From the sequence record NC_024146.1: DNA of 56,702 nt, one strand, 5' to 3'. Below, piece by piece: positions 1 through 56,702 of this stretch (the stretch's first letter is position 1; every line of letters starts with the position of its first letter). Position numbers and translations under genes: made by a program. This DNA comes from Enterobacteria phage 9g. The notes beneath the pieces were generated by a model, which did not search any database, was not told the origin of the DNA, and worked only from the letters and a program-made list of their open reading frames with translations.

Positions 1-1
1 T

Positions 2-36
2 GTGGGCCAGTACAAATGTATTGGCCCACTTTTTAT
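2..36 (+). terminator. Rho-independent terminator-like hairpin at the window start
   Basis: gtgggcca(2-9) / tggcccac(22-29), 8-bp stem, 12-nt loop, then TTTTTATT. Would close the plus-strand late operon if the window ends are joined; abuts the polymerase stop codon at 36. Confidence 0.45.
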
Positions 37-2009
37 TAAGCGGCGTATGCGAGTTTTTCCAGCAATTTTTCCGCTTTAGCTATGTACACTTCGTGGTTAA
101 GATCTGGCGGTAACTGATCAGTCAGTTCCATCATTGGTTTACCCCCTGCTGTCTTACCAACACGCCCACCACTCTTAACTATCAGTATTTCAGGTACTTC
201 TTCTTTTGTATAGTACCAGCGAACAACCTTACCTAACGGCTCACTATTCCACGCAGCTCCACCGTTAGCTGTCTTGATACAAACAAACTTACGAATATCC
301 TGACACTCTGTGATAGTTTTAGCAATTGGTGTACCGTCACGGAGAAGATTAACCACAGCATCCATAATGATTTCACCTTCTGCGTTTTTAGCAAGGCCTG
401 TCTCAGCGAACCAACCTTTACGCTTGGCTTTACCATCTGCCTTGATTGCGACGTAGTTGTTAACGTTTGCGGAGTTAAGGCGCAGGTACTGGTTCAACTC
501 CATTTCAAAGCCAGTTGTTTCTTCCCACCACTTAATGATATCTGTCATTAATTGCTTCTTAGCTTTGCAAGGCTTAATAACAATACCGTCCGTGTTAGCA
601 CTGACAACCTGAATACCGTTAAGCTCTAGTGTTTCAATAAGCATGAGCAGAGCTAACTGACCTGTGAGCGTAGTCTGAATAATAAGGTGCGGTGCATACA
701 GAATAGAGAACGGTGAACCGAACTTACCATAAGAACCGTTAATAACGATCTTAAGAGTTTGTGCGGTCTTATCGTCATGAGCCATCTTAGCTGCAATACG
801 TCGTTCTACGATCTTAACGAAGATATCTATAAAGCGCGGGCCCAGGTGCTCAGGATACAGTTGCTGGTTAATGATACAGATCGGGTAGTATGACGTTACG
901 TCAGCGTCCCACATCTCTTCATCTTCAGACGGTACAATCTCCATTAACTCTTCGCACGAGTGCAGACCACCGATACCCATGTTGTAAGTTGTCTGATTGA
1001 TTGTAAACTTCAAAGAGTTCATGGTTGATGGTTGCTTAATTTTACCGTCTTCTGCAACTCGGAAGTAACTATCAAGCACAACCTGAAATACGGACTTCAT
1101 TAGTGGCGTTTGGAAACCTAACCACACTGGAGGATTGTACTTAAAGGTTCTGCCAACTTCCACCATACCCTTCTGTGGTACGAAGCCCAGCATTTCCTTC
1201 ATTTCATGGCGGATTACAGCTTCTGCGATCTGTGCATCGGATTTAGAGCGAAGGTCTACTTTGTACTCCTCACTCATAATCTCACGTAGATGGATCTGCT
1301 CTTCCAGTGAGTTAAACAGAGCCATTGTTGTATCAAGGTCGTTAATGCAGTAGAAGCGCACAATAGCAATTTGTTCTACGGATAACGCCCAATGTGGTGG
1401 GAATGGTAAGTCCTGGAGCTTCTGCATGTGCATACGGCCGCCATACAACTTCAACGAACCGAAGCCAGGAGCCACCTCTTGAACGTCAATGTGGTCAATC
1501 CAAAACTGTTTTACACCAAAGCTGTTAAGAATGTCCCACGGAGCCCACTCTTCCTGGATCATCCTGTCACTTGCTTCTTTTAGCTTGTCAACAGTCAAAC
1601 CAGCAATGGCAAGGAATGTCATCGTATTATCGTAGTTTCTTGAGTTGAAACCAACGGTACGAAAGTTCTTCATTATCCATTCATATTTTTCCGTGTCAAG
1701 TGTCTGACCGGCAGTCATTTCTAGATAATAAACCTTGCCAAACTTAACCCCTTTAAACGCCACAAGAAAATAGTTCTTATAGCATTCTATATCGTATACG
1801 AACGTTTCTTGTGCAAAATACATTTCCACTAATTCACCGTCTGTCATACGCGGATCGTTAGCTGCAAAACGCATTGCTACATCAAGACCTGGAAGGTAGT
1901 CCGGACGCTCCCATACCCTTTCAACTGGTTGACGTTTTACTTTCTGTTTCTTTTCTTTCTTAGTGGGAGGTAAATCCTCCCAAAAGAAACCAATAGCATC
2001 TTTTCTCAT
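36..2009 (-). CDS. DNA polymerase, family B-like, with 3'-5' exonuclease motifs
   Basis: 657 aa. Exo I-like YDIECY; PolB motif A DVTSYYPICII (DxxSLYPS type); motif B KIVINGSYGKFG (KxxxNSxYG type); motif C-like SANTDG. ATG at 2009 overlaps the stop of the upstream gene (ATGA). Confidence 0.85.
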   Translation of the reverse strand: MRKDAIGFFWEDLPPTKKEKKQKVKRQPVERVWERPDYLPGLDVAMRFAANDPRMTDGELVEMYFAQETFVYDIECYKNYFLVAFKGVKFGKVYYLEMTAGQTLDTEKYEWIMKNFRTVGFNSRNYDNTMTFLAIAGLTVDKLKEASDRMIQEEWAPWDILNSFGVKQFWIDHIDVQEVAPGFGSLKLYGGRMHMQKLQDLPFPPHWALSVEQIAIVRFYCINDLDTTMALFNSLEEQIHLREIMSEEYKVDLRSKSDAQIAEAVIRHEMKEMLGFVPQKGMVEVGRTFKYNPPVWLGFQTPLMKSVFQVVLDSYFRVAEDGKIKQPSTMNSLKFTINQTTYNMGIGGLHSCEELMEIVPSEDEEMWDADVTSYYPICIINQQLYPEHLGPRFIDIFVKIVERRIAAKMAHDDKTAQTLKIVINGSYGKFGSPFSILYAPHLIIQTTLTGQLALLMLIETLELNGIQVVSANTDGIVIKPCKAKKQLMTDIIKWWEETTGFEMELNQYLRLNSANVNNYVAIKADGKAKRKGWFAETGLAKNAEGEIIMDAVVNLLRDGTPIAKTITECQDIRKFVCIKTANGGAAWNSEPLGKVVRWYYTKEEVPEILIVKSGGRVGKTAGGKPMMELTDQLPPDLNHEVYIAKAEKLLEKLAYAA

Positions 2010-2998
2010 AGACGAAATCCTACAATTACCCCACGTAGATTTTCACCATAAAAAATAATAGGAGTTGAAAGACCCCTTTCGTCCTTTTCATTGAAACGCG
2101 AAGCATCCCAATCTGTCGCAAGTCCTTTCAACTGCATAATGAGATCTATATTATACACGCCAATTGACTTAGATTCACGGAACATTGCACTAGCACCATC
2201 CAGCTCGTTGTAATGTGTGCGTACAACACCATTTTCCATGTAAATACGCCCATCCCGCTCACAGAACGGTTTTATCTTTTCTAAGCAATTAAAAAGCTCA
2301 GTATCAAGCGTATAGACGTTGGCCCCATTTTCTGTACGCTCAATTATCTTATCAATGTTAGGCCACTTTAATTCCAGCAATTGTGTACGCAACCAGCAAC
2401 CGTCTTCGTAGTGAAATGTCATACTGGTATCTGTACATTGAATTCTTACTGGTGGCTTTTTAATACGCAATAATTCTTTGATGGCCATACGTGGCACAAC
2501 ACAATCTACAGGGAATACAGCACCGAACCAATACTGTATAATACTAGCGTTGTTGGTCGCGTACATGCTGCCCTGTTTTACCAGCACGCCGCAAGACCAC
2601 GGGCGGGAAGCATCGTCGCTTATAAACGGCGTTACACGGCTTAAACCGTTGAGAAAAAGCTGACCGTCTATTTCGTGAATTGTTCCTTCTGGCTCTACGT
2701 GTGCAGTTGGTTTCTGAAGAGTATCCACACTGACCTTAAAGCCACCAGACTTAATGCTCAACTTACCATTCGCTAACATTGTCATCTGTACAGCTTCGTC
2801 ACATGCTGCAATAGCCTTGAGCATTGGTTCAGCTTTAGGAGTACAGTCAATATTTAGTGGTACTGGACTACATAATGAAATAGTTCCGTTAAACCCGCGC
2901 ACAGTACCATCAACAATACGGAAGTGAGTTAAACCTTCCTGAAGTTCTTTCTTAGCTACAGAACCCTGAACAAACTTTAAAGCATCAAGTAAATCCAT
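2006..2998 (-). CDS. Putative beta-sliding-clamp-like processivity factor
   Basis: 330 aa. Motif layout resembles DnaN: N-terminal L..ALKFVQGSV, then GKLSIKSGGFKVSVDTL (cf. DnaN ...RSGRSRFSLSTL) and ATNNASII (cf. ATDGHRLA). Translationally coupled to the polymerase. Call is from remembered motif pattern, not a search. Confidence 0.45.
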   Translation of the reverse strand: MDLLDALKFVQGSVAKKELQEGLTHFRIVDGTVRGFNGTISLCSPVPLNIDCTPKAEPMLKAIAACDEAVQMTMLANGKLSIKSGGFKVSVDTLQKPTAHVEPEGTIHEIDGQLFLNGLSRVTPFISDDASRPWSCGVLVKQGSMYATNNASIIQYWFGAVFPVDCVVPRMAIKELLRIKKPPVRIQCTDTSMTFHYEDGCWLRTQLLELKWPNIDKIIERTENGANVYTLDTELFNCLEKIKPFCERDGRIYMENGVVRTHYNELDGASAMFRESKSIGVYNIDLIMQLKGLATDWDASRFNEKDERGLSTPIIFYGENLRGVIVGFRL

Positions 2999-3006
2999 AA
3001 GTAACC

Positions 3007-3960
3007 TTATTCGTCAAATAAATCCTGGAGACGTTCGTTGAACTTCCCATTGTGGTTAGCAAGAATCATAGCGTTGACCACACCATACGCCCATAAATTG
3101 TATGCAGCGCGTGATTCGTATATGGTTGAAAGTCGTTCGTATGTGAAACCTGACTCCTCTAAGTAGCGCAGAACATTATTCTGTTCTATTTCTGAAAGAT
3201 TACAGATGTGCTGCCCTTGATAGTGGCGTGACGGTGACTTTTCAGATACCTGCATTGGGCCCCACTTAGGAGTTTCAATAGCACCAAACGCCGCAGATTG
3301 AATCCAGGAGGATGAGTCACAGGAGTACCACGGGTAACGCTCCATAAGCGGGCGGGACGTAATACCAAAACCATGAACTTTAATCTTAGCGCGTCCACTA
3401 CCGTCCACAAGGTGCTTATCCCATACCCTGTCCAACCATACCTGAAGTTGTTGTGTACTCGCTCCAACAAGACCACCGAGCGTGATATACTCATAGTTTC
3501 GCACATAATGGTCCAGGTATTCAAAAGGTTCACCGGCGTGGAAGCATGGTAAAGGTCTTACACCTCTGGCTTCCATCTCTTCCTGGTTGCGCCACGTTTG
3601 AAGTGGATCACCAATACCATCGAGTACAGAAGCCATAAGCGAACCATCTTCCACACGGATGATATCTATGTTTCGTTGGATGTAATCACAGTATTCTTTA
3701 ACCGATAACGTAACTCCCAAAGTGTAAGCTGAGAACGCTCCGGAGTCGAGGAATATCTTGGCCCCATCGGCACGCATGGCATCAACATAGGATTGCTTTC
3801 CAACGTAGTGCCAGGATTCGAGAATGTTTGGAATATTTTCGACAACACGTTTTTCTTGTTCGTTGAGTTTGACATAGCGGTTCATTCCTGGTTTATAGCT
3901 GTTCGTATATACGGCAGCCATATAAATCTGAAAGGTATAGTTGATATCTTGTCTGTGCAT
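3007..3960 (-). CDS. dpdA: DpdA-like DNA-guanine transglycosylase (TGT superfamily) for 7-deazaguanine insertion into DNA
   Basis: 317 aa. TGT-like IFLDSGAFSAY (cf. TDSGGFQ) and overall TGT-like length; sits at the 3' end of the folE-queD-queC-queE operon. ATG at 3960 preceded by GGTGA. Confidence 0.75.
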   Translation of the reverse strand: MHRQDINYTFQIYMAAVYTNSYKPGMNRYVKLNEQEKRVVENIPNILESWHYVGKQSYVDAMRADGAKIFLDSGAFSAYTLGVTLSVKEYCDYIQRNIDIIRVEDGSLMASVLDGIGDPLQTWRNQEEMEARGVRPLPCFHAGEPFEYLDHYVRNYEYITLGGLVGASTQQLQVWLDRVWDKHLVDGSGRAKIKVHGFGITSRPLMERYPWYSCDSSSWIQSAAFGAIETPKWGPMQVSEKSPSRHYQGQHICNLSEIEQNNVLRYLEESGFTYERLSTIYESRAAYNLWAYGVVNAMILANHNGKFNERLQDLFDE

Positions 3961-4029
3961 TGTTCACCTAACAAATAAGCGCCCGTAGGCGCTTATTATA
4001 TTAAAGATAATGTATGATTCGCAAATCAG

Positions 4030-4644: not shown

Positions 4645-4670
4645 GGTTTGCAGTTTCCTTGTGTGGTCAA

Positions 4671-5204: not shown

Positions 5205-5206
5205 TT

Positions 5207-6622: not shown

Positions 6623-6623
6623 A

Positions 6624-12961: not shown

Positions 12962-13888
12962 TTACTGTGCAGCGTCATCACCTTCAGTGGAACGTTTCCA
13001 CGGTGGAGTCTTGGTCTGAGCTGCTTTAGCGATATCGTCCTGGACTTCCGGTTCTGCATGGTTAGCAGTACCAGTGTTCTGAGCTTGAGTTTGCGGTTGC
13101 TCTGCTCCAGGCTGTACCTGCTGAGTTGCCCAGTTAGGCTGCTGTGTGGTTTGTTGCTGCTGCGGCTGCTGCGCACCAGTAGCCCACGGTTGAGATTGTG
13201 CCGCGCTGTTAAAATCAACTGTTCCAGACTGCTGCTGTTGCTGTACCGGCTGCTGCGGCTGTTGTTGCTGCTGCGGTTGCTGGAACCCCTGAGCCTGAGG
13301 TTGTTGCTGCTGTTGCTGCGGCTGCTGCCCAAATGCGCCCGGGAAACCCTGCTGCTGCGGTTGCTGCTGTTGTTGCTGAGCACCACCGAACGCACCACCA
13401 CCAAATGCTGGAGATTGTGCTGCCGCTGCCGGAGTTGATTTAGGCAGGTTAGCCATATCCGCCTTAGTTGCGTATACAACACCTTCCATATTATCAATTG
13501 CTTGATAAATCTGAGGTTCGTTGTTTGGCTCATAGCCAGGTTGCTGACGAACTTTCACTTTCAGGTTAAACGGAATACCGTGCAGTTGTTCCGTATCGTT
13601 CCAGACTGGAACTTTAACAGCACGAGACAGCTCTGCCAGTTCTTCCATTGCAATCTGTACAGCGACAGGGTTCGCGTTCTTGACGTTGTAACCGCCAAAC
13701 ATCACACGACCAGCAAAATCACCCTGCATGATCTTAAACTGAAGATTCAGACGCGCACCGCCTGGAGTTTTAGTCGGTTTGATTTCAGAGTTTACAATCT
13801 GAACAACATACCAACCAGCGGGCATCAAGCTGTTGTGTTGACGCTCTGCGTGTTGTCCAGCGTTAAATTGCATTCCTAAACCGGCCAT
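12962..13888 (-). CDS. Putative ssDNA-binding/annealing protein (DUF669-like) with long Gln/Pro-rich linker
   Basis: 308 aa, ATG at 13888 with AAGGGG upstream. Globular N-terminal domain followed by a ~110-aa Q/P/G-rich low-complexity segment; adjacent to a Sak4-like ATPase gene, as is typical for DUF669 proteins. Confidence 0.5.
   Translation of the reverse strand: MAGLGMQFNAGQHAERQHNSLMPAGWYVVQIVNSEIKPTKTPGGARLNLQFKIMQGDFAGRVMFGGYNVKNANPVAVQIAMEELAELSRAVKVPVWNDTEQLHGIPFNLKVKVRQQPGYEPNNEPQIYQAIDNMEGVVYATKADMANLPKSTPAAAAQSPAFGGGAFGGAQQQQQQPQQQGFPGAFGQQPQQQQQQPQAQGFQQPQQQQQPQQPVQQQQQSGTVDFNSAAQSQPWATGAQQPQQQQTTQQPNWATQQVQPGAEQPQTQAQNTGTANHAEPEVQDDIAKAAQTKTPPWKRSTEGDDAAQ
13093..13435. repeat. 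CAG/CTG-rich low-complexity DNA encoding the poly-Gln/Pro linker
   Basis: Runs of ctgctg/ttgctg on the plus strand (e.g. 13200-13400) correspond to QQQQQQPQQQ... in the minus-strand protein. Confidence 0.7.
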
Positions 13889-24866: not shown

Positions 24867-25903
24867 AACCTCACCTTGATGATAATAAATCTGCTAATTT
24901 TGAAATTCAGTTGCCAAGTTTTAATTTATGCAAAGTTTTTGCTATTTGCAACTGTGATATTTTGCGGTGTTTGTATGTGCAATGTTTTTGCTTTTGCAAA
25001 AATTACAGCAGTCTGAAGGTGAGAAATTGCAAATTTATAAAGATCGGTGAAAAAATGCACAATTTATAAAGATCCCGTAATACATAAAACGGCGAAGCGA
25101 AGTGTATGAAAAATAAGGGAAAATTTCGAGGATTGGGAGGTTTGTATGAATTTATATTATTTATAAAGGGGTCCCGTAGGGGTCGTCAGTAGACAACTCA
25201 AAAATAAAAAATCTTTATAAAATTTATATAAATACACACATACACACATTTTTACCTTACTTTTCAAGCACTTACCTCCTTTCATTTTGTATATTAAGCG
25301 ACTATATATGAACAATATGACATATATTTGTTGCGCAACACCTGTGCGTTTTTTAACCAATCGAAAGATTGCTTTATATACGTCCGCGCGTCTAACACAA
25401 AAGAAAAGTGGATTGCAAGCGATTTTTGCTGAGGTAACTCTCGAAGTGAAAGCGATTTGCGAGTTTGAAATTTTGTAGCCCGAAAACGATTCTATTTTAT
25501 GGTATAAATGCCGGATTTTTCGGTGAAAGCCGGCTTTTCGGCGAGGTGGGGTGGCCGAGATCGGGGTGGCGAGTCGCCCATAAGGCGAAAATAGCCGCGA
25601 AAACGGGGCACACAGCGCGATTAAATGGTTGGATCAGTGTAAGGGTGGCGGTGAGGGGTGAAAATGCCCTAAAAACGCGTACAGGGAAGCAGGGAGCGGA
25701 TCGCTGTAAGGGCGTATAAAGCGAGCAAATTGGAGTCTATGGTAATGTACGGAAGAGGGATTCAGGTTCTTAGAGCGCGAATGGTGGTGCTATGGGTGAG
25801 GAATATGTGGTCAGCGGGGTAGCGCGGGAGGTTATGCAGGTACAAAGACGAAAACGCCCCGTTGGACTTCAACAGGGCGCGGATTGTATAATGCAGTTAG
25901 AAG
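24867..25903. promoter_or_regulatory. ~1-kb non-coding region: AT-rich motif-dense half (24867-25460) plus purine-skewed G-rich half (25460-25900)
   Basis: No ORF with a plausible start/SD. Repeated TTTGC(A/G)A motifs; direct repeat AATTTATAAAGATC at ~25027 and ~25059; many G-tracts on the plus strand. Role unknown. Confidence 0.4.
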
Positions 25904-26149
25904 TTATTTATTATCTAATAATACCGCCCAGGTATTATCTGGAAGCGTACCAATTCCGAGAATGCGAACCTTCCACTGAGCGCGAGAGTTGTACCTGTCC
26001 ACAAGTTCTTGCGCTGCATAAGCTGCATTCGCTTCGCTGCTGAGGCGGTAGTCAATGGGGGTAACAACGCACATGTCAAGGCCGACAGCTTTATAGCGCC
26101 GACATTTCGTTTCGGTAGCGGACAGGGTTTTTACATGGATAGCTTGCAT
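25904..26149 (-). CDS. Hypothetical small protein (paralogue of 26393..26638)
   Basis: 81 aa, ATG at 26149 with AGAGGA upstream. Shares MxQAI..K.L.A.T ... A..A..EL ... G.LPD with the neighbouring 81-aa ORF. Confidence 0.5.
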   Translation of the reverse strand: MQAIHVKTLSATETKCRRYKAVGLDMCVVTPIDYRLSSEANAAYAAQELVDRYNSRAQWKVRILGIGTLPDNTWAVLLDNK

Positions 26150-26217
26150 AATAGTTTCCTCTGTTAACTATGCGAAGTGCATATTATTGCCCACTGTTAC
26201 TATGGGCAATGTATATG

Positions 26218-26382
26218 TCACTCAGCGGACACGTATTCTAACGCTTCTGATAGTGTAGCGAAGTGACCATCACTTACCAGATTAATAGCGTACTCAAGTT
26301 TATCTCGGGTCAGGTTGCGAAACTTGTTACGGATGTGATAGCAACGACCGTGATAAATAACCTGGAAATAGTTGCGTTCCAT
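26218..26382 (-). CDS. Hypothetical small protein
   Basis: Start moved to the internal ATG at 26382 (AAGGGGA upstream); the longer ORF overlaps the upstream gene. Confidence 0.4.
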   Translation of the reverse strand: MERNYFQVIYHGRCYHIRNKFRNLTRDKLEYAINLVSDGHFATLSEALEYVSAE

Positions 26383-26392
26383 AATTATCCCC

Positions 26393-26638
26393 TTAAGCAA
26401 CGATGAACGCGTAACCGCTTTGATCCGGGAGCTCACCACCAGCAACAATCTCAAATTCAACACCAGCCTTATTGTTGAAGTTCTTGATAAGCTCCTCCGC
26501 CGCGGCGCGGTGGTTTCCGTAAGCACTCAAATCGTAACGCCACGTGATAGTCAAGGAGCCGTTCCAACCCGTTGCTTTTACGCGATCGCCACGGGACATA
26601 GTTGGAGCGAGGAATTTAGTGATAATAGCTTGAGCCAT
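26393..26638 (-). CDS. Hypothetical small protein (paralogue of 25904..26149)
   Basis: 81 aa, ATG at 26638 with GGAGT upstream. Confidence 0.5.
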   Translation of the reverse strand: MAQAIITKFLAPTMSRGDRVKATGWNGSLTITWRYDLSAYGNHRAAAEELIKNFNNKAGVEFEIVAGGELPDQSGYAFIVA

Positions 26639-26643
26639 GATAA

Positions 26644-26829
26644 TTACTCCGGTAATATTACAGTCACGTTAATATTTGCAATGCGAGCGCACTCGCGGAA
26701 ACCTGTTACATAAGCATCCATTTCGTCATAGGATGCGAAAGTCACGTCCGGGACTGGTCCGTTGTTAATATTCACGCAATATTCGTGTTCGTCCAGGTCA
26801 ACCCAACAATATAGAACGATAGTTTCCAT
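26644..26829 (-). CDS. Hypothetical small protein
   Basis: Start moved to the ATG at 26829 (GGAGGG 8 nt upstream); 61 aa. Confidence 0.45.
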   Translation of the reverse strand: METIVLYCWVDLDEHEYCVNINNGPVPDVTFASYDEMDAYVTGFRECARIANINVTVILPE

Positions 26830-26830
26830 A

Positions 26831-26905
26831 TTATTTGCCCTCCGTATAATACAGACCCGCAACTATTGGAGCTCCAAACACCAAGAAAGCTAATAAGTAG
26901 AACAT
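26831..26905 (-). CDS. Candidate 24-aa hydrophobic peptide
   Basis: Not in the ORF track. MFYLLAFLVFGAPIVAGLYYTEGK; AAGGGGG upstream; its stop sits 1 nt before the next ATG. Confidence 0.25.
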   Translation of the reverse strand: MFYLLAFLVFGAPIVAGLYYTEGK

Positions 26906-26907
26906 AA

Positions 26908-27387
26908 TTAATTGCCCCCTTTATTATTGAGCCCGTTGAATTTACGCCATGCGTAGAATTCAATCGTTGCATTATTAATATTCCAACCATTAACTTTCGC
27001 AAGGTCACGGACGTTACCAATAGTTGGCACATTATTAGGTAACATATTATCCAGGGCATTCCAAACGTCTGCGCATTTACCCTTAACTGGGCGGCGGACC
27101 CCGTTGCGCGTTTCGCTGCGCGTTTTACTTTTAACGGGAGCGACAGGAGCTTGCTGTGTGGTCACTTCCACGACAATTGCTTTATCAGCTTCCACCAGAT
27201 CGTTAGCTGCCTTATTAACTGCGCTTTCGCTGAACCAGTAGCGGCCACCATTTTCCATGGGTTCCTGGTGGATAAAACTATTTGCTGTCGCTGTGTCTAC
27301 GTCCAGAAACTTTTTCAAGGCACGGCGAGCGTTAGACATATTGGTGAAAAAGCGAGCATCTTTTGCTACGCGAGTGATAGTAACCAT
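26908..27387 (-). CDS. Hypothetical protein
   Basis: Start moved to the ATG at 27387 (GGAGA 8 nt upstream); 159 aa. Confidence 0.5.
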   Translation of the reverse strand: MVTITRVAKDARFFTNMSNARRALKKFLDVDTATANSFIHQEPMENGGRYWFSESAVNKAANDLVEADKAIVVEVTTQQAPVAPVKSKTRSETRNGVRRPVKGKCADVWNALDNMLPNNVPTIGNVRDLAKVNGWNINNATIEFYAWRKFNGLNNKGGN

Positions 27388-27463
27388 TGTGATTATCTCC
27401 ATGCTGTTCTAGCGGATTGCTAGTGGGAGCCCACTGTTACAATGGGCAACCATTAGCACGCTA

Positions 27464-27769
27464 TCATTGTTGAATAGCTTTCGCTATCATTGTAATAAAG
27501 CAGAACACAGACCACAGACTATTCGCTTGGCATACTGCGCGACCATACATTACGCTATGAGAGCTGACAGTGCCGTCCTCGTTAATGCGAATATACAACG
27601 CGGTGCTGGAATATTTTTCGTTTCCCGGGAGCATTACTAAATACTCGTCAAAATCCCAGTCCCCGGCAACTTTTTCCGCTGTAAGGCCCAACTGGTGCAG
27701 GCGCTTGCCAATAATACGTTTGGTGATCATGGACTGGGACATGGGACGCGGTAAGTAAATACTGGACAT
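27464..27769 (-). CDS. Hypothetical protein (first gene of the minus-strand early cluster)
   Basis: Start moved to the internal ATG at 27769 (AAGGGAGA 8 nt upstream); the ATG at 27886 has no SD. Confidence 0.5.
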   Translation of the reverse strand: MSSIYLPRPMSQSMITKRIIGKRLHQLGLTAEKVAGDWDFDEYLVMLPGNEKYSSTALYIRINEDGTVSSHSVMYGRAVCQANSLWSVFCFITMIAKAIQQ

Positions 27770-27954
27770 AATGCAATCTCCCTTCGGGTGAAGCGGGCGC
27801 GGAACCCGTGTCCCGCTTAAAAACCCCCTTAACCCCACGCAGTTATAGTAGGACAACGGGGTATTAGATGCAACTATTATCTGCATTATTTTAGAACTTT
27901 TTTAGTTGTGTTTCATAATAATAACATCCGGGACTATGCGGTAGATGGTGTGCC

Positions 27955-28033
27955 GGAAATACCAGGTAACGCGAGCGTGTCGAAAATACCAGGTAACAGC
28001 ATATGCCGAACATACCAGGTAGCACATACATAG
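27955..28033. repeat. Three tandem direct repeats (period 26-27 bp) with core GAAAATACCAGGTAAC
   Basis: ggaaATACCAGGTAac (27955-), gaaaATACCAGGTAac (27982-), gaacATACCAGGTAgc (28008-); cores at 27959-27968, 27986-27995, 28012-28021. Confidence 0.7.
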
Positions 28034-28070
28034 ACAGCACATAGTGGGCAGGTGGATAGTAACAGATGTA

Positions 28071-28088
28071 ACTATACTGGACAGTATA
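28071..28088. promoter_or_regulatory. Perfect palindrome CTATACTG-GA-CAGTATAG (operator-like) in the divergent control region
   Basis: 8-bp inverted arms with a 2-bp spacer, between the minus-strand and plus-strand early gene clusters. Direct repeats ACGTTATAGTA occur nearby at ~28154 and ~28216. Confidence 0.4.
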
Positions 28089-28374
28089 GTATAGTCATGT
28101 AATAGATAGCACACTAATCAAATAAAAAATAGTAACGCGTGTAATAATAAACAACGTTATAGTAGAGCGCATGACAGTCACATGACGTAACAATCACCTC
28201 ACCGACGATCACGGGACGTTATAGTAACGCCGCGGGGCGGCTCTTAGATCTCTGCCAAGGATTCATCGTTTGTAGATTATCTCGTCACTAGACACTTTAT
28301 ATCCTCACCTCACCTGCCCTATATTGTTCGTATAAAGTTAATTCCGTATATAAATACTCGAGAGGAGATCTATT

Positions 28375-31754: not shown

Positions 31755-32189
31755 ATGACTGTGCAACCACGAGGCATCCGGAATAATAATCCTGGAAATA
31801 TTCGTTGGGGTGATAACTGGAAAGGTCTTGTTCCAGAAGACAAACGAACTGACCGTTCTTTCTGTCAATTTATCGATGTAAAATACGGCATACGCGCGAT
31901 CGCGCGTATTCTACTAAACTACCGGAACCGCGAAGGGATGAAGCGCGTCGGAAATAAAGGGATTGACACTGTACGGGAGATTATTTCGCGCTGGGCTCCA
32001 CCGATTGAAAATAACACTGAAGCCTATATTCAATCCGTGTCTAAGGCTTGTGGTGTTGGTGCAGAACAGCCGATTTCAGTCACCGATGATAAAATCATGC
32101 TTGCGATCGTGAAAGCGATCATTAAACATGAGAACGGTGTGCAACCTTATTCTGATGAAGTTTTGCTCGCGGGTATCCATATGGCATAG
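31755..32189 (+). CDS. Putative endolysin (assigned by position in the lysis cassette)
   Basis: 144 aa, ATG at 31755 with GGAG upstream; lies between the spanins and the holin. Catalytic family not recognised by eye (contains GIRNNNPGNIR). Confidence 0.4.
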   Translation: MTVQPRGIRNNNPGNIRWGDNWKGLVPEDKRTDRSFCQFIDVKYGIRAIARILLNYRNREGMKRVGNKGIDTVREIISRWAPPIENNTEAYIQSVSKACGVGAEQPISVTDDKIMLAIVKAIIKHENGVQPYSDEVLLAGIHMA

Positions 32190-32202
32190 TAAGAGGTTAT
32201 AA

Positions 32203-32511
32203 GTGTCGCCGAATTGGGATTGGAATATAGTTTTTATTCTCACTGCCATTGCGATGGTAGGGGGTTCCCTTGGCTACGCTGCAAGAACCCATGATGCTAA
32301 AGAAAGGTTCAGACTTAGTGTCTTCATTCAAGAGGGTACTTTTTCTGCATTCTTTGGTTTCTTGATAGGTGTAATTAACGTGGAACATGGGGTCCCACTG
32401 GGGCTCAGTGGGGCGTTCATAGGTGTGTTATCTTGGTCAGGTTCAAGAACCATGCTGAAGTTTCTACGGAAAAAGACGGAAGTATGTGACCGAGAAAAGG
32501 AAAGAGGTTGA
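32203..32511 (+). CDS. Holin-like membrane protein
   Basis: 102 aa from GTG after AAGAGG. Three hydrophobic segments (IVFILTAIAMVGGSLGYAA; FSAFFGFLIGVI; LGLSGAFIGVLSW) and a charged C-terminal tail. Confidence 0.55.
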   Translation: MSPNWDWNIVFILTAIAMVGGSLGYAARTHDAKERFRLSVFIQEGTFSAFFGFLIGVINVEHGVPLGLSGAFIGVLSWSGSRTMLKFLRKKTEVCDREKERG

Positions 32512-32513
32512 TT

Positions 32514-32750
32514 ATGCGTCACTTTATCAACGATCTTCTTATATTGTGTAAGAAACCGCGATTGCTTTTCATCTATACGATGATTGGACTTGCACAAATT
32601 GGAGTCAGTGCTATCGCCATTGATCAGATGCACAAGAAACACAGGGCAAACCTGCGACCTTCAAAACCACCTGCTTATGTGGTCAACAAGGTTGAACAAA
32701 TCAAACAAGATATCCGGGAGATAACGTACATTCCTAAAGTTGAAATGTAG
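32514..32750 (+). CDS. Small membrane protein (possible holin partner/antiholin)
   Basis: ATG at 32514 (AAAGAGG upstream); one TM segment FIYTMIGLAQIGVSAIAI. Confidence 0.4.
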   Translation: MRHFINDLLILCKKPRLLFIYTMIGLAQIGVSAIAIDQMHKKHRANLRPSKPPAYVVNKVEQIKQDIREITYIPKVEM

Positions 32751-32765
32751 ATTGCTTTATAAGTA

Positions 32766-32804
32766 AAGCCCGCTCCTTGAATTTATATCGAGCGGGCTTT
32801 TTAT
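32766..32804 (+). terminator. Rho-independent terminator after the lysis cassette
   Basis: aagcccgctc(32766-32775) / gagcgggctt(32790-32799), then TTTTT. Confidence 0.6.
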
Positions 32805-32833
32805 TGACATTTGCTATAACCCTTGCAATTAAT
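32804..32833 (+). promoter_or_regulatory. Candidate sigma70 promoter for the packaging/late operon
   Basis: TTGACA 32804-32809, 18-bp spacer, ATTAAT 32828-32833. Weak -10; speculative. Confidence 0.25.
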
Positions 32834-32879
32834 TAGTCCACCGCTTATATTCGTGTCAAGAATCGACAGGAGTAACGTT

Positions 32880-33431
32880 ATGGTAAAGCCTATTCTACCT
32901 TGGACACGTAGCATTGAATACGAAGCCGATCTCACTGAAGAAGAGATGGCTATACGTGACTCTGTCGTTGAAGAATATCTGTTCGATTATGATTGGGTTA
33001 ATGCGTGTAAACGTGTAGGCATGAGCTCCGCAATGGCGTTTGATTATGCTAAACGTTTTCAGGATGATAGCTATTGCCAAAGACGAATTAAAGAACTTCA
33101 ACAGCAGAAAGCAAGAAGTGCTGAACGTGACCGCAAATATGAAATAGAACAAGAGCGCCAGCGCATCATTGAAGGTCTTAGATTTGAATCCACTTATCGT
33201 GGTCCTGGATCTTCTCAAGCTGCTCGTGTTGCTGCATATAAACAATTATGTAGCATCTTTGGATTTGAAGCTCCTAAGCAACAGAAGATGGATGTTGGCG
33301 TATCTACTGGTGTTATGCTGGTTCCTATGGTTGGTTCTATGGCTGATTGGGAAAGAGTTGCTGGGGAGTCTCAGACTAAGCTGCAAGAGGATACTTTAAA
33401 TGGACTCAATGATTCAGACACCGTCCACTAA
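32880..33431 (+). CDS. Terminase small subunit
   Basis: ATG at 32880 (GGAG 7 nt upstream) preferred over the TTG at 32823; 183 aa, charged and helical; immediately upstream of and overlapping TerL. Confidence 0.6.
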   Translation: MVKPILPWTRSIEYEADLTEEEMAIRDSVVEEYLFDYDWVNACKRVGMSSAMAFDYAKRFQDDSYCQRRIKELQQQKARSAERDRKYEIEQERQRIIEGLRFESTYRGPGSSQAARVAAYKQLCSIFGFEAPKQQKMDVGVSTGVMLVPMVGSMADWERVAGESQTKLQEDTLNGLNDSDTVH

Positions 33432-34998
33432 GGTAGTATGGAAACCACATCCAGGATCTCAGGTACTGGCACTAAGTTGTCCAGCAGATGAGATTTTATA
33501 TCATGGTACTCGTGGCCCTGGAAAGACCGATGCTCAGTTGATGCGTTTTCGTCGTTATGTTGGCATGGGGTATGGTAAACACTGGCGCGGTATCATTTTT
33601 GACCGAGAATACAAAAACTTAGATGACTTAGTTGCAAAGTCACAGCGTTGGTTTCCTGAATTTAATGATGGTTGTAAATTCTTATCTTCCAAGTCAGATT
33701 ATAAATGGGTATGGCCTAGCGGCGAAGAACTAATGTTCCGTGTTGCTAAAAAACCTAAGGATTACTGGCTGTACCACGGTCAGGAATTTCCATTTATTGG
33801 ATGGAACGAATTAACTAAATATCCTGATAGTGGGCTTTATGAAGCAATGAAGTCCTGTAACCGTACATCCTTTGTTGCAGAAGAAAACCCAATAATTATT
33901 GACGGTGATGTGTATCAGAGAACTGGGCGTCTTGTGCTTGTTCAACCGGACCATGAATACGCAATGCAGTTCATACTACCACCTTTGCCGTTGCAGATCT
34001 TTTCTACGACTAACCCATTTGGGGTTGGACATAACTGGGTCAAGAAATATTTTATTAACTCTTGCCCTCTTGGGTCCATGAAGAAGGAAGTAACAAACGT
34101 CTTCAACCCTCGTACACAGAAACGGGAAGACGTAGTTCGAACTCGCTGCCATATATTTGGTTCGTATCGAGAGAACCGCAACTTGACACCTGAGTATGTT
34201 GCGCAGCTTGTAAACATTGACGATCCTAACCTCCGTATGGCATGGCTCGGTGGTAGCTGGGATATTACGTCAGGCGGAATGTTCGACGACCTGTGGCGTC
34301 AGAATATACATGTGGTCAAGCCATTCCCAATACCTCACTCCTGGAGAATTGATAGATCATTTGACTGGGGCTCAAGTAAACCGTTTTCTGTTGGTTGGTG
34401 GGCAAGAAGTGATGGTAGTGATATCGTGTATCCAAATGGGCGTCGTGTACGAACAGTACGAGGTGACTTATTTAGGATCATGGAGTGGTATGGTACTAAC
34501 GGGAAACCGAACGAAGGTTTAAGATTATTGGATTCTGAAATTGCTCGTGGTATCATCGTCAGGGAAATTGAAGCTGGTTTATACGGTCGCGTAGTTCCAG
34601 GCCCTGCTGATAACAGCATTTGGGACGTTAAGGACGGTAACAGTACCGCAGCAACAATGTCTAAACCAATAACTATCAATGGTCGGTCTTATCCTGGTGT
34701 ACAGTGGATTCGAAGTGATAAATCCCCTGGATCTCGTAAAGCAGGTTGGAAACGAATGCGGGAATATTTAGCTGCTTCAATTCCGGATCCTAAGGTTGCC
34801 GCTTTACGTGAAAGACCTTCTATGTTTATTTTTGATAACTGTCATCACTTTATAGATCTTGTTCCAACTCTTGCTAGAGACGAAGATGATCTTGATGATG
34901 TCGATACTGATTCTGAAGACCACATTGCTGACGAAGCTCGTTATCGCGTAGCTAACGAAGCACGTGGTGGTAGTATCGGTAAGACTGTTGGGACATAA
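33400..34998 (+). CDS. Terminase large subunit
   Basis: 532 aa. Walker A GTRGPGKT near the N-terminus; C-terminal nuclease-like acidic residues; AAGAGG upstream. Confidence 0.9.
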   Translation: MDSMIQTPSTKVVWKPHPGSQVLALSCPADEILYHGTRGPGKTDAQLMRFRRYVGMGYGKHWRGIIFDREYKNLDDLVAKSQRWFPEFNDGCKFLSSKSDYKWVWPSGEELMFRVAKKPKDYWLYHGQEFPFIGWNELTKYPDSGLYEAMKSCNRTSFVAEENPIIIDGDVYQRTGRLVLVQPDHEYAMQFILPPLPLQIFSTTNPFGVGHNWVKKYFINSCPLGSMKKEVTNVFNPRTQKREDVVRTRCHIFGSYRENRNLTPEYVAQLVNIDDPNLRMAWLGGSWDITSGGMFDDLWRQNIHVVKPFPIPHSWRIDRSFDWGSSKPFSVGWWARSDGSDIVYPNGRRVRTVRGDLFRIMEWYGTNGKPNEGLRLLDSEIARGIIVREIEAGLYGRVVPGPADNSIWDVKDGNSTAATMSKPITINGRSYPGVQWIRSDKSPGSRKAGWKRMREYLAASIPDPKVAALRERPSMFIFDNCHHFIDLVPTLARDEDDLDDVDTDSEDHIADEARYRVANEARGGSIGKTVGT

Positions 34999-43358: not shown

Positions 43359-43787
43359 ATGTCTTCAGAAAACAAACAAGTATCTACTGAAGTTGCAAAG
43401 AAAGCTGTTGGTACATCTTTCCGTGACTTTAACTTGAAAAAGAAATTAGAGAACGCTCCGCTGCTGCATTACCCGCTTGTTTTTCCAGGGCAGGGCGATA
43501 CAGGTCACTGGCTGAAGATTCGCAACCGCCACAGCGAAGAATTTCGTCAAGCGGATTTAAAAGCACAACGTCAGATCAGTGCGCTTGTCGTTGCCAACGG
43601 ATCTTTTGAAAACATTGATAAGGACATGCTCGACGATATCAATATGCGAGCGTTCTGTAAGTTGGTTGCTTCGTGGAGCTTCGAAGAAGAATGCAACGAA
43701 GACAATCTTCTTGAATTCTTTGATAATAACCCGTTTGCGTATGACGACATCAATCGTCTGGCAGCGCAAGATTCCCTTTTTTTCTAA
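43359..43787 (+). CDS. Tail assembly chaperone (gpG-like)
   Basis: 142 aa, immediately upstream of the tape-measure gene; ends ...QDSLFF* at a T_TTT_TTC slippery heptamer. Confidence 0.65.
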   Translation: MSSENKQVSTEVAKKAVGTSFRDFNLKKKLENAPLLHYPLVFPGQGDTGHWLKIRNRHSEEFRQADLKAQRQISALVVANGSFENIDKDMLDDINMRAFCKLVASWSFEEECNEDNLLEFFDNNPFAYDDINRLAAQDSLFF

Positions 43788-52107: not shown

Positions 52108-52110
52108 ACT

Positions 52111-52134
52111 ATTAACCCCTCGAAAGAGGGGTTA
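52111..52134. terminator. Perfect 10-bp palindromic hairpin between convergent genes
   Basis: ttaacccctc GAAA gaggggttaa; sits between the J-like gene stop (52107) and the minus-strand lipoprotein stop (52139). Confidence 0.5.
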
Positions 52135-52138
52135 ATGT

Positions 52139-52372
52139 TTAGTAGTCTATAACACAGTTTGAAGGGCTCCCAATTCTTCGGTATTCGTGAGCAATCTCCT
52201 GGCACCATTGCCCCGTCATTGGGAGCTTTTCGGTATCGTAAATTAAAGAACCGTTATCGTCCCGATCCAATGGTTTTGGGATAACGCCGGAATTCGGTTT
52301 ACCGGTATCTAAGCCATTACCACATGCGGTGAGGGATAAACAAAATGTGAGCATAATCAGAGCGCGTTTCAT
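52139..52372 (-). CDS. Small lipoprotein, candidate Llp/Cor-like superinfection-exclusion factor
   Basis: 77 aa. Signal peptide and lipobox [17 protein letters not shown]; AAGGAG 6 nt upstream; the only minus-strand gene in the structural block, between tip and fibre genes. Confidence 0.65.
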
Positions 52373-52453
52373 TGGGACTCCTTTGTGTTGTTGACAGGGT
52401 TGAATTTCAATATACTTGTTGTGTTGAGTAAGCTAAATAAAGCGAGAAACATT

Positions 52454-55400
52454 ATGGCAATTCGTTTACATGGTATTCTAGTTGATGGATTGAATAAACC
52501 AATCGTCAATGCAAACGTCTTCTTACTTGCACGAAGCAATACTATTGTAGTTCTAGGTGGAAGTAAAGCGGTATTTAAGACTGATTCGCAAGGTGCTTAC
52601 GACGTCACAGTCAACGCCGGGCATTATGTGGTTATCATTGGACCGGAAGGTAAGGAACCGTATAAAGCGGGTGACATTGTAATCTATGCAGATAGCCAGA
52701 ACGGTTCACTTAACGCATATCTTACTAAATGGGCTCCAGAAGAAACTACACCTGAAATACTTCATGAGATAAAGCAACTGGTGGCTAATTCTGAGCAATT
52801 CGCATTGCAGGCGTCTGAATCCGCTGCTAATGCTAAGAAGAGTGAGCTTAACGCGGAGACAAGTAAAAACTCTGCTGCAACGGATGCAGCGTCAGCTCTG
52901 CTATCAAAACAGGAATCTGCCGCTAGTGCGTCTTCCGCATTGCAATCCAAGAACGCTGCGGCTGGTTCTGCTACATCAGCTCAACAATCTCTTACTGCTG
53001 TGCAAGGACTCAAAGTTGAAGTCCAACAATTAAAAACCGACACGCAGCATATTAAAGAAGAGGGCGTCGCTGAAGTAACAGCTCTCAAAAATGCTGCAAC
53101 TACAGCGGCTAACAATGCTAAAGCATCAGAAACTGCATCTGCTAATAATGCGACTTTGGCTGATACTAAAGCAAAGGAAGCGTCTGTAAGTGCAACCACT
53201 GCTGATCAAGCGAAAGTGGCTGCTGAGGCAGCAAAGGACGCATCCGAAGCAAGTGCGGTTGAATCTGCTACTTCTGCTGGTGAATCGCAGACCTCAGCTA
53301 ATGCAGCTAAGGCAAGCGAAACGGTTGCAACACAGAAGGCAGCTTCGGCCTCTACGTCTGAAACTAATGCGGCAGCTTCCGCTCAGACTGCGACTAACAA
53401 AGCTGGTGAGTCTGCCGCTAGTGCTACCGCAGCTAAGGCAAGCGAAACTAATGCTAAGACGTCAGAAACTAATGCTGGTACATCAGCTGGAAGATCTGAG
53501 TCCGCTGCTTTGCGCTCAGAAGCTGCTGCTGAACGTGCGGAAGAGATTGCTGGTGCAATTGGTCTTGAAGATGCGACTTTGACTGTTAAAGGTATCGTTC
53601 GTCTTAGCAATGATACTGACAGCACTGCTGAAGACCTGGCGGCTACACCAAAGGCTGTTAAAACAGTCATGGACGTTGCTAATACTAAAGCTCCGTCAAA
53701 TAGTCCTGTTCTAACTGGTGTACCAACGGCACCAACTCCAGCACCTGAAGTTAATAACAATCAGATTGCTACAACTCAGTTTGTACACCAAATTATAAGC
53801 GCACTTATTGGTGATGCACCAGACGCGTTAAACACTCTGAAAGAGTTAGCTGACGCTCTTGGTGATGATCCGAACTTTGCTACAACGATGACCACACTTA
53901 TTAACAGTAAGTTGGCCAAAGATCAGAACGGTGCTGACATTCCTAATAAGCAACTGTTTATTGATAACGTTGGTTTACGTGAGACTGTTAACTTAGCTCT
54001 CGGTGCATTGCAGAAGAATCAGAACGGTGCGGATATACCGGATAAAGGCGTCTTCCTTAATAACATCAATGCTGCCAGCAAGACGGATATGGCCGCTAAA
54101 CGTGGAATGAAGTTTTCGCGTGTAGATGCACCAGCGGGAGTTGAAGCAGACAAGTTTTATCCTGTGGTCATTCGTCGTTGTTCTGGATTCAACAGTGAAT
54201 TAGCATCAAGGGTAACGATAAGTACAGATTCAAGAATGTCAAGCCATAGGATGAACAACTGTGATTTCAATGGTTTTGTGATGCCTGGTGGATGGACCGA
54301 CCGCGGACGATATGCTTATGGAATGTTCCACGCATATACTGCAAATGAGCGTGCTATTCATTCTATTATGATGGGTGACTCGGATGATGATCTGTGCTCT
54401 GTGTTCTATGTTGAAGGTGAAGCGTTCCCTATCTCTGTATATGTAGAAGAAGGCTTATTTGTTGTTGTACCGTCCGCCGACTATGTTGTCGGACAAACGA
54501 CTTACAAATGGGGTGCTACAGACCCTAGAACAGAATGTGTGGCCGCTAAAACTATACTTGATTTCTGCAATGGTAGAGGATTCTATAGTTCGCACGCACT
54601 CCTCACAAATGCAGATATTAGCGGTGCGAAAATCTACGCCAACGGTGAAATCGTAGCTCGCGGTGAGAATCAAGTTCGTATGATTGGTGGGGACTACGGT
54701 GCATTATGGCGCAATGACGGTGCCATGACCTATCTCTTATTTACCGCTAAAGGTGATCAATACGGTGGTTGGAACGATTTAAGACCATTTATGATTGATA
54801 ACGCTACTGGTGAGTTTACCATCGGCACTAAATTGAACGCCAATCAAGGTGTGAATGGTAATGCGTCAAGTGCTACGAAGTTACAAACAGCGCGTAAAAT
54901 TGGTGGCGCCTCATTCGATGGTACTGCTGACGTCAATCTTCCAGGTGTTAACATTCAGGGTAATCAGAACACAACTGGTAACGCGGCAACTGCCACCAAA
55001 CTACAGACAGCAATAAAAATATCTGGTGTTTCGTTTGATGGTTCTACTGATATCACTTTAACCGCCGGGCATGTAGATGCTTTTGCCAGAAGGGCAACGG
55101 GTACATATTCCGATGCGGATGGTGGCGTTCCCTGGAATTCCGAATCAGGCGCTTACAATGTCACCCGCTCTGCCGACAGCTATATATTGGTTAACTTCTA
55201 TATCGGAGTCGGAAGTTGCCGGACCCTGCAGATGAAGGCGCATCACAGAAATGGAGGTCTGTTCTACCGTTCCTCAAGAGATGGCTACGGTTTCGAAGAA
55301 GATTGGGACCAAATTTACACTAAAAAGAATCCACCTCCGGCTGGTGAAAGTTTACCTGTAGGTGTTCCATTACCGTGGCCTACGGATACACCTCCGTCCG

Positions 55401-56089
55401 GTTATATTGTAATGCAGGGTCAATCCTTCGATAAAGCTGCATACCCGAAACTGGCGGCTGCATACCCAACGGGCGTGCTTCCAGACATGCGTGGTCAAAC
55501 TATCAAAGGTAAACCAGCAAGCGGTCGCGACGTACTTTCTACGGAAGATGACGGTGTGAAGTCACATACTCACACTGCGTCTACTGCATCTGTCGATCTT
55601 GGAAGCAAGACAACTTCCAGCTTTGACTATGGTACTAAGACAAGTTCGAGTTTTGACTATGGCACCAAATCTGCTGCTTCAGCTGGTGCGCATACGCATA
55701 GTCTGAGCGGTTCAACAGGCTCAGCTGGTGCTCATGCCCACACAGGTGGTTTAAGGATGAACAGTGGTGGTTGGGACCAATACGGATCAATAACCGTTCC
55801 GGCAAGTGTATCCACGGTTAAAGGAACCAACCAGCAGGGAGCTGGTTATTGTGCGAAAACAGACAGTCAGGGCAACCACACTCACTCTTTATCTGGTACT
55901 GCTGCTTCGGCTGGAGCTCATACACATAACGTGGCCGTTGGTGCTCATACGCATACTGTAGGTATTGGTGCTCATACCCATACAGTCGCTTTAGGTTCAC
56001 ATAGCCACGGTGTTACAGTTAACGCAACTGGTAACACGGAGAACACCGTTAAGAACGTTGCATTCAACTATATTGTGAGGGCTGCTTAA
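52454..56089 (+). CDS. Side/long tail fibre protein with C-terminal His-rich HxH repeats
   Basis: First ATG at 52454 (GTG at 52385 possible). Ala/Ser-rich helical repeat region; C-terminal [53 protein letters not shown] repeats; a Tfa-like gene follows. Confidence 0.85.
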
Positions 56090-56667
56090 TGTCTTTTGAA
56101 ATGAGTAATGAAGACCAGACTGTAACCGTGTATGACTACTCCAGGGATACGGGCGAATATGTGGGAACCCGTGAGGCGTATGTGGTAGCCAACACAGGTC
56201 TTCCAGCATGTTGTACTGATATGGAGCCTCCAGTGGCTCCAGAAAATCATGTGGCAATTTTTAAAATAGACAGCCAAGTATGGATTTTACGTGAGGACCA
56301 TCGAGGGAAAGTTGTATACGATAAAAATACAGGACTTCCTTTAGTGATAACCACTATTGGATCTCTCCCGGATAATGTGACCTTTATCGCTCCCAACGGC
56401 GAGTATATGAAGTGGAACGGTAATATGTGGGTGAACGATCCGGATGCACAACGTGCTAAGTCGGTTGCGGATGCAACACAACACAAAACAGATCTTCTTA
56501 ATTTAGCAGATTATAAAATCAGTATTCTACAAGATGCTGTGACTTATAATCTAGCTACTGACGAAGAAAGTTCGATGCTGGAATCGTGGAGAAAGTTTCG
56601 TGTACTTGTGAACCGCGTAAACGAAAACGATCCACAGAATATTATCTGGCCTGAGACTCCAGAATAA
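56089..56667 (+). CDS. Tail fibre assembly protein (Tfa-like chaperone)
   Basis: 192 aa immediately after the tail fibre gene, start overlapping its stop (TAATG); typical Tfa size and position. Confidence 0.65.
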   Translation: MSFEMSNEDQTVTVYDYSRDTGEYVGTREAYVVANTGLPACCTDMEPPVAPENHVAIFKIDSQVWILREDHRGKVVYDKNTGLPLVITTIGSLPDNVTFIAPNGEYMKWNGNMWVNDPDAQRAKSVADATQHKTDLLNLADYKISILQDAVTYNLATDEESSMLESWRKFRVLVNRVNENDPQNIIWPETPE

Positions 56668-56702
56668 GCAGAGGCAACGTACGGCATTTTGGGGCATTTT
56701 AT

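Follow-up and report, generated by a model that had tools for sequence, protein, structure and literature searches.

The window analyzed here, a single stretch of 56,702 nucleotides, corresponds to the deposited genome of Enterobacteria phage 9g, a lytic siphovirus, and is complete with respect to non-redundant sequence. The explanation that accounts best for its layout, and that we consider probable, is that the genome was opened arbitrarily, with the terminator of the late genes lying at the cut and the ends of the virion DNA, which would bound a direct terminal repeat (DTR), lying in the middle of the window. It also appears fairly likely that 9g and the genera Nonagvirus and Seuratvirus package DNA with a DTR of 3.1-3.7 kb that is cut at two conserved sites, the right one (GCCGCGGGGCGGCTC/TTAGATCT) located inside the divergent early/late control region.

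The proteins encoded at both window edges matched exactly those of phage 9g (Nonagvirus, Queuovirinae; record NC_024146 / KJ419279, 56,702 bp), and the best relatives in a phage genome collection were Nonagvirus genomes with 95-97% identity. Early genes occupy the minus strand from 27769 to 36 and late genes the plus strand from 28375 to 56667. The early arm ends with the DNA polymerase gene (36-2009, minus strand; PHROG 1252, profile positions 1-653 of 663; identical to AHN84517.1 of 9g), whose 1,974-nt reading frame has the same length in relatives. The late arm ends with the gene of the tail fibre assembly protein Tfa (56089-56667, plus strand; PHROG 105; identical to AHN84587.1 of 9g). PHROG profiles covered both edge proteins in full length, and further PHROG matches comprised replication, 7-deazaguanine modification, lysis, packaging, head, and tail functions, which bears out the gene content and the intact edge genes proposed in an earlier sequence-only reading. 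Its view of the window as a complete linearised genome holds for the non-redundant sequence, but not for the window ends as physical termini, considering the published 9g read starts and the records of the related phages HdSG1 and HdK1. The small terminase subunit (32880-33431, plus strand; PHROG 5334) and the large subunit TerL (33400-34998, plus strand; PHROGs 2 and 979, with a weak Terminase_6N match) would be the enzymes that cut the DNA at its termini. The slippery sequence of 9g, CCCTTTTTTT, occurs once in the window, at 43774, and the published -2 frameshift site is the same in the window. Scans for tRNAs and Rfam families gave no hits in the window, the repeat region included.

Published 9g coordinates are those of the window, as judged from the read-start hot spot at 28,243 and the 473-bp and 603-bp non-coding stretches. 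The paper on 9g (PMC4276943) gives a length of 56,703 bp, compared to 56,702 bp in the window, with no difference in sequence. Its map was redrawn to start at 28,243; in the deposited record, by contrast, the cut of the original assembly is retained. The annotation notes of HdSG1 quote 9g locus tags, such as 9g_00007, that are numbered from the left end of the window.

We show here that the window closes into a circle. In a junction alignment with 10 related genomes, bases 56702 and 1 (GGGGCATTTTAT/TGTGGGCC) were contiguous without a gap, and the 35 nt that separate the Tfa stop codon from the window end (56668-56702, plus strand) led directly into the same hairpin in all 10. This seamless joining, together with proteins that are exactly those of 9g, agrees with the earlier view of a whole replicon rather than an internal fragment. 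In addition, 97.4% of the window was collinear with the unique genomes of HdSG1 and HdK1, and the cumulative GC skew peaked at the window ends and reached its minimum at 24-28 kb. The contig would have been opened arbitrarily, 1 nt before the strongest hairpin and within the 70-nt gap between the convergent gene arms; the record of phage ESCO3 is opened at the same base. That the window ends might be ends of the molecule had been implied at most, but the cut is an arbitrary assembly break where the arms converge, and the published physical end is at 28,243.

The hairpin at this junction (2-29, plus strand; GTGGGCCAGTAC-AAAT-GTATTGGCCCAC) consists of 12 pairs, 7 of them G-C and one a G10-T21 wobble, closed by an AAAT loop. 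It is followed by the T-tract TTTTTATT (30-37, plus strand; TTTTT at 30-34), corresponding to the U-tract of a plus-strand terminator. The hairpin folds at -21.1 kcal/mol (z = -6.0 versus shuffled sequences) and was the strongest combination of hairpin and T-run among 148 candidates in the circularised genome. Stem and U-tract together have the anatomy of a Rho-independent (intrinsic) terminator of the plus strand, and the records of HdSG1, HdK1, and SP8 each independently annotate it as a terminator. The sequence-only reading had assigned a late terminator to 2-36; terminator anatomy is indeed present just downstream of Tfa across the junction, with its extent corrected to 2-34. The hairpin begins 36 nt past the Tfa stop codon, at the point of convergence of the late (plus) and early (minus) arms. 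Judged by its structure, it probably terminates transcription and would halt the late plus-strand transcript 36 nt past that stop codon, before antisense entry into the DNA polymerase gene.

A bidirectional terminator was considered and rejected. On the minus strand the stem is followed by AAUAAAAUG and hence lacks a U-tract; moreover, the G-U wobble turns into an A-C mismatch there, which weakens the fold to -17.2 kcal/mol. In 10 Nonagvirus relatives the stem is identical apart from C13>T, which gives a G-U pair; the G10-T21 wobble and this variant both pair in plus-sense RNA only. A different role, in which the main target of the hairpin would be the early transcript of the minus strand, whose 3' end it would stabilise or weakly terminate downstream of the DNA polymerase gene, and in which late termination would not be its main function, appears unlikely to us, given a U-tract confined to the plus strand in all 11 Nonagvirus sequences, the weaker minus-strand fold, and the second plus-only wobble added by C13>T. 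In its favor, the stem always lies 6 nt past the polymerase stop codon (36-38 in the window), whatever adjoins the other side. Furthermore, in the homologous hairpin of Klebsiella phage Kpn2-P2, situated within a row of minus-strand genes, the stem is kept by two compensatory pairs and lacks the T-run; thus, the stem may also serve the early transcript. This role and that of a late terminator are compatible and not mutually exclusive. A terminator at this position is in itself routine.

The right end of 9g DNA lies at 28243/28244. Kulikov et al. (2014; PMC4276943) counted 91 reads that start at 28,243, every one of them in reverse orientation, with a sharp break in coverage at this position and 85 reads passing through it. 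They inferred a terminal repeat, whose size could not be determined. We found that the right boundary of the terminal repeats in the HdSG1 and HdK1 records maps precisely to 28243/28244, so that three independent data sets (9g reads, HdSG1, and HdK1) concur in this position. It lies within a 51-nt block (28214-28264, GCCGCGGGGCGGCTC/TTAGATCTC at the cut) that was invariant in an alignment of 9 genomes, and within the divergent regulatory region between the early (minus) and late (plus) arms (27770-28374), described previously as a 603-bp intergenic region (PMC4276943) and containing three 21-nt repeats at 27950-28023. Packaging by cohesive ends (cos) was discarded, considering the 85 published 9g reads that cross 28,243. 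A scan of IMG/VR with the right-boundary sequence returned 7 matches, at loci stored in a form that does not show where the contigs end. Among the matches listed, all public contigs with an identical TerL (10/10) run through the right boundary, which is uninformative because a collapsed repeat predicts the same. An exact look-up of the first late protein retrieved no record.

The other end of the molecule was located by comparison with vB_EcoS_HdSG1 and vB_EcoS_HdK1, Nonagvirus members 87-97% identical to the window across collinear blocks and sharing the 9g terminator and terminal-boundary sequences. Unlike the 9g record, the records of these phages hold both copies of a repeat of approximately 3.36 kb. 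They also possess a module of four genes (2.2 kb), located between the Tfa gene and the terminator, and several small insertions, all of which 9g lacks. Their terminal repeats are exact, 3,363 and 3,367 bp in length and without mismatches, and the left boundaries map to window positions 25160 (HdSG1) and 25163 (HdK1). According to Korf et al. (2019), both records were linearised where most reads had ended abruptly. Beyond Nonagvirus, the record of the Seuratvirus ECP2304, with a TerL 66.5% identical to that of 9g, carries an exact 3,695-bp terminal repeat, and for the Queuovirinae phage iggy a DTR of 1,091 bp has been determined. The repeats of HdSG1, HdK1, and ECP2304 are not called DTRs in the literature found, in which Korf et al. 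(2019) mention no repeat for HdSG1 and HdK1, and other literature mentioning Nonagvirus, Seuratvirus, or PhageTerm did not report termini for Nonagvirus or Seuratvirus.

Transferred by homology from these two phages, which were sequenced in one laboratory, the left end of 9g DNA would lie at approximately 25160 (TTATATTA/TTTATAAAGGGGTC, within 25140-25200), with the cut at 25159/25160 (HdSG1 type) or 25162/25163 (HdK1 type). On the inner side of the boundary the sequence is conserved, and the 20 nt on the outer side vary. A comparison of left and right boundaries in 9g and ECP2304 revealed no convincing shared motif. With the HdSG1 and HdK1 boundaries mapped onto the window, 9g virion DNA would measure about 59.8 kb and carry a DTR of about 3,084 bp (25160-28243). 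Thus, the virion DNA very probably contains a second copy of about 3.1 kb, to judge from these relatives, that the window lacks. The sequence-only reading had seen no long terminal repeat between the window ends, and we likewise found none linking them; the assembly would have collapsed the repeat.

Within 25160-28243 lie the early promoter region and at least six small early genes, together with the terminator at which their cluster ends. This terminator (25855-25879, minus strand) folds at -16.9 kcal/mol, is the second strongest in the genome, and is annotated in both HdSG1 and HdK1. The small early genes and the first late genes belong to PHROGs families of unknown function only, and a Pfam search with both sets yielded nothing. 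As a putative mechanism, to which both the repeat length in 9g and the mode of cutting belong, terminase would cut replicated concatemers at two fixed sites, at approximately 25160 and at 28243. The packaged molecule of about 59.8 kb would then consist of the DTR (25160-28243), 28244-56702, 1-25159, and the DTR again. The 9g data themselves were reported to show a single read-start peak and a coverage of approximately 1.5x across the whole early half, not 2x over 3 kb (PMC4276943). The DTR model does not explain this coverage.

Such a single peak raises the question of headful packaging, in which 28,243 would be a pac cleavage site, packaging would proceed leftward, and the far end would be set by head capacity, giving terminally redundant and partly permuted DNA. 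One read-start peak in one orientation, crossed by other reads, is what was reported for 9g (PMC4276943), short-read assemblies of relatives all close into circles, and PhageTerm failed to reorient related Seuratvirus assemblies. We nevertheless regard headful packaging as rather improbable. HdSG1 and HdK1 show two sharp ends at orthologous positions, their records having been linearised at abrupt read ends, and not the combination of one fixed start, imprecise far ends, and constant length that is characteristic of headful packaging. Moreover, the redundancy amounts to 3,363 versus 3,367 bp although the unique lengths (60,232 bp in HdSG1 and 60,692 bp in HdK1) differ by 460 bp and the total lengths by 464 bp, whereas a headful gauge would hold the total length constant. 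A repeat of constant length in genomes of different unique length argues for site-specific ends and against headful measuring. A circular assembly is equally expected from a collapsed DTR.

When a template is circular or collapsed, contigs from long-read assemblers often have ends that overlap by kilobases. The redundancy in HdSG1, HdK1, and ECP2304 might then be assembly overlap, with 9g possessing a repeat of another, perhaps short, length that ends at 28,243; the silence of the Korf paper on a repeat would fit this scenario. We consider it very unlikely, since artefacts would occur at arbitrary positions, whereas the two independent assemblies agree, at the right boundary to the base and at the left within 3 bp. 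The right boundary coincides, in addition, with the 9g read-start peak, which comes from different data, and the repeats are free of mismatches.

There is hardly any chance that the window represents part of a larger replicon, such as a prophage with host flanks, or that its ends are true blunt or cohesive virion ends: no support for either was found, although the divergent-promoter layout recalls temperate phages (PMC4276943), whereas the junction alignment with 10 relatives already refutes both, the edge genes are complete phage genes, and the read-start peak is at 28,243 and not at the window ends. Window positions 1-25000 had no match among 5,426 complete E. coli genomes, and the window is therefore not a prophage; no integrase was reported for 9g (PMC4276943).

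For the most part, these findings are ordinary and already known; what is new, to a modest degree, is the inferred size of the 9g repeat. If the DTR model is correct, each virion contains the early promoters and the first small early genes twice, but the late promoter only once. The model would also put a figure on the repeat, which the authors of the 2014 paper were unable to do, and would define a site at which the terminase lineage of 9g cuts. The true ends of 9g-like phages matter for genome engineering and in vitro packaging, and they bear on which genes reach the cell first and are present there twice, as well as on what to call the packaging strategy that the terminase lineage of the Queuovirinae uses. 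For annotation, the 9g record advises caution: a complete-looking record with intact edge genes may be opened arbitrarily and lack the second copy of a repeat.

Compared to known systems, the hairpin at 2-29 resembles Rho-independent terminators at convergent operon junctions in its stem of 12 bp rich in G+C, its loop of 4 nt, and its U-tract, and in its location between two convergent stop codons. It differs from a classical bidirectional terminator in its asymmetry, the other strand being devoid of a U-tract. The proposed ends of 9g DNA would correspond to the long DTR class of PhageTerm, represented by phages such as T5 and SPO1, with which 9g would share fixed ends, a kilobase repeat, and circular collapse in assemblies; in this class, too, the repeat holds the earliest-expressed small genes and their promoters. 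The 9g repeat would be much shorter, at approximately 3 kb versus approximately 10-13 kb in the T5/SPO1 class. In published comparisons against terminases whose strategy is known, the packaging mode of the 9g terminase lineage could not be predicted. This lineage, the YuA / phiJL001 / Queuovirinae group, differs from the terminase lineage of the T5/SPO1 class.

The ends of the deposited record do not coincide with those of the phage 9g DNA molecule. Read starts mapped on the originally assembled 9g sequence formed a hot spot at 28,243 (91 starts, all in reverse orientation), where a sharp coverage break was accompanied by 85 crossing reads; from this combination, a direct terminal repeat was inferred, the size of which could not be fixed (Kulikov et al., PMC4276943). 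The published numbers agree with the window coordinates and put the hot spot 473 bp past the first early gene's start codon, with the first late gene (28375) beginning about 130 bp further on. Cumulative GC skew has its minimum at 24-28 kb and its maximum at the window ends, which identifies the latter as the convergence point of the early and late gene arms, not a terminus. The deposited record keeps the assembler's cut, situated one base before the strongest hairpin of the genome, and this hairpin may be the reason for the assembly break. [quoted passage not shown]

The records of the Nonagvirus relatives HdSG1 (63,595 bp) and HdK1 (64,059 bp) are longer than other Nonagvirus records; both had been opened at positions where most reads stopped abruptly. 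Upon rebuilding, each showed an exact terminal repeat free of mismatches, 3,363 bp long in HdSG1 and 3,367 bp long in HdK1. In both, the right repeat boundary corresponds to window position 28243/28244, which is the published 9g hot spot, within a 51-nt block invariant in nine genomes. The left boundary maps to 25159/25160 in HdSG1 and 25162/25163 in HdK1, with sequence conserved inwards from the boundary and variable just outside. The record of Seuratvirus ECP2304, with a TerL protein 66.5% identical, carries an exact 3,695-bp terminal repeat at the equivalent place. No discussion of these terminal repeats was found in the texts consulted on the HdSG1, HdK1, and ECP2304 records. An origin of the three repeats from assembly overlap is unlikely, because the repeat boundaries coincide across independent data. 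Between HdSG1 and HdK1, the repeat keeps its length despite a 460-bp difference in unique length, a pattern expected of site-specific cutting and not of headful measuring. With its left end and length taken by homology, we infer that the 9g terminal repeat spans 25160-28243, about 3,084 bp, and virion DNA would then measure about 59,786 bp.

The inferred repeat would hold most of the divergent control region and at least six small early genes belonging to PHROG families without assigned function. Among its contents are the second strongest terminator in the genome (25879-25855) and two paralogous minus-strand genes for 81-aa products (25904-26149 and 26393-26638), both assigned to PHROG 3199, which would give four genes of this type per virion. 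Three direct 21-nt repeats (GTGCCGGAAATACCAGGTAAC, core ATACCAGGTA; 27950-28023) occupy a part of the divergent control region that begins 220 nt and ends 290 nt inwards from the right repeat boundary; they are conserved in eight relatives and could represent operator, origin, or terminase-binding sites. The left boundary is enclosed by roughly 1 kb of non-coding sequence (24867-25903), composed of an A+T-rich part with three occurrences of ATTTATAAAG (about 25045-25170) followed by a G+C-rich part (25500-25880). This stretch had no match in Rfam. In some related contigs, an HNH endonuclease gene is found at this location.

The sequence-only reading had described the window as an apparently complete linearised genome, which was supported in part. 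Completeness was borne out, considering that the genes at both edges are intact and that the ends are contiguous in relatives; the position of the cut is arbitrary, and the second repeat copy is probably missing from the record. In phages ChristophMerian and FritzHoffmann, the coordinates matching the last 42 bases of the window directly adjoin those matching its first 3,000 bases, and an alignment of ten relatives showed a gap-free junction between ...GGGGCATTTTAT and TGTGGGCC... Collinearity with the unique genomes of HdSG1 and HdK1 extends over 97.4% of the window length, and small insertions in those relatives are the sole departures. We found no direct repeat linking the window ends, in agreement with the same reading. 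A comparison of the first 25 kb with 5,426 complete E. coli genomes returned no match, which rules out a prophage fragment.

At the closed junction, a stem-loop (2-29) is followed by a T5 run (30-34). Its fold of -21.1 kcal/mol (z = -6.0 versus shuffles) ranks first among 148 hairpin-plus-T-run candidates in a scan of the circularised genome. It is located between the convergent stop codons of the tail fibre assembly gene tfa (56665-56667) and the DNA polymerase gene (36-38), which are 70 nt apart; the hairpin starts 36 nt past the former and ends 6 nt short of the latter. A U-tract is present on the plus strand only, and the minus-strand fold is weaker (-17.2 kcal/mol) and followed by AAUAAAAUG. 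A G10-T21 wobble, found in 11/11 Nonagvirus sequences, and a C13>T variant in three of them, which adds one more G-U pair, permit pairing in plus-sense RNA only, providing evidence of selection on the plus-strand transcript. The HdSG1, HdK1, and SP8 records likewise list this element as a terminator. These features support the earlier proposal of a plus-strand late-operon terminator, with activity predicted from sequence.

In Klebsiella phage vB_Kpn2-P2 (75% identical), two compensatory changes, U-A to C-G and G-C to A-U, preserve the stem. Unlike in 9g, this homologue (L010, 1470-1497) has no T-run, and its neighbouring genes, including two extra ones beyond it, are on the minus strand. The stem thus goes with the 3' end of the polymerase gene and not with the late operon. 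In addition to its predicted function as plus-strand terminator, the hairpin may act secondarily on the early transcript.

A 2.2-kb module comprising four hypothetical genes, together with an extra terminator, separates tfa from the hairpin in JenK1, HdSG1, and HdK1 and is absent from 9g (HdSG1 record 31978-34181, compared with window 56661-56667 and the junction to position 1). In JenP1, JenP2, SE1, and ESCO3, the last genes of the module adjoin the hairpin upstream. The 7-nt sequence AGAATAA, containing the stop codon, occurs at both module breakpoints, suggesting microhomology-mediated deletion or insertion at a variable cargo slot.

The genes between 36 and about 27.8 kb are on the minus strand, and those between 28375 and 56667 are on the plus strand. 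PHROG matches in the early arm comprise DNA polymerase, sliding clamp, DpdA-type transglycosylase, QueC-type enzyme, helicase, primase, and ligase. Those in the late arm are spanin, endolysin, holin, small and large terminase, portal, scaffold, major head protein, tail tube, tape measure, central fibre, side fibre, and tail fibre assembly protein. Within the minus-strand ORF 12962-13888, an imperfect run of GCTGCTGC-type repeats (13137-13382) probably encodes a low-complexity Gln/Ala-rich segment.

Exact-sequence look-up identified the first and last gene products as the 9g proteins AHN84517.1 (DNA polymerase) and AHN84587.1 (Tfa). The slippery site CCCTTTTTTT (43774-43783), at the end of the tail chaperone ORF (43359-43787), occurs once in the window and matches the published -2 frameshift site of 9g. 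These matches identify the window as the deposited 9g record. Its length is 56,702 bp, versus 56,703 bp in the Kulikov 2014 paper. The closest phage-collection entries to the leading 3 kb were Nonagvirus genomes (95-97% identical), and none exceeded 99% identity. Whole-genome assemblies of Shigella sonnei, Shigella boydii, and E. coli also contain near-identical polymerase and Tfa proteins, encoded on stand-alone contigs (58.6-59.5 kb), which suggests Nonagvirus carriage in the sequenced cultures and agrees with the pseudolysogeny discussed for 9g.

The genome itself is thus the published one, and the sole new element is the putative size and boundaries of its terminal repeat, deduced by comparison with relatives. 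Among the Queuovirinae, a determined direct terminal repeat is that of phage iggy, with 1,091 bp.
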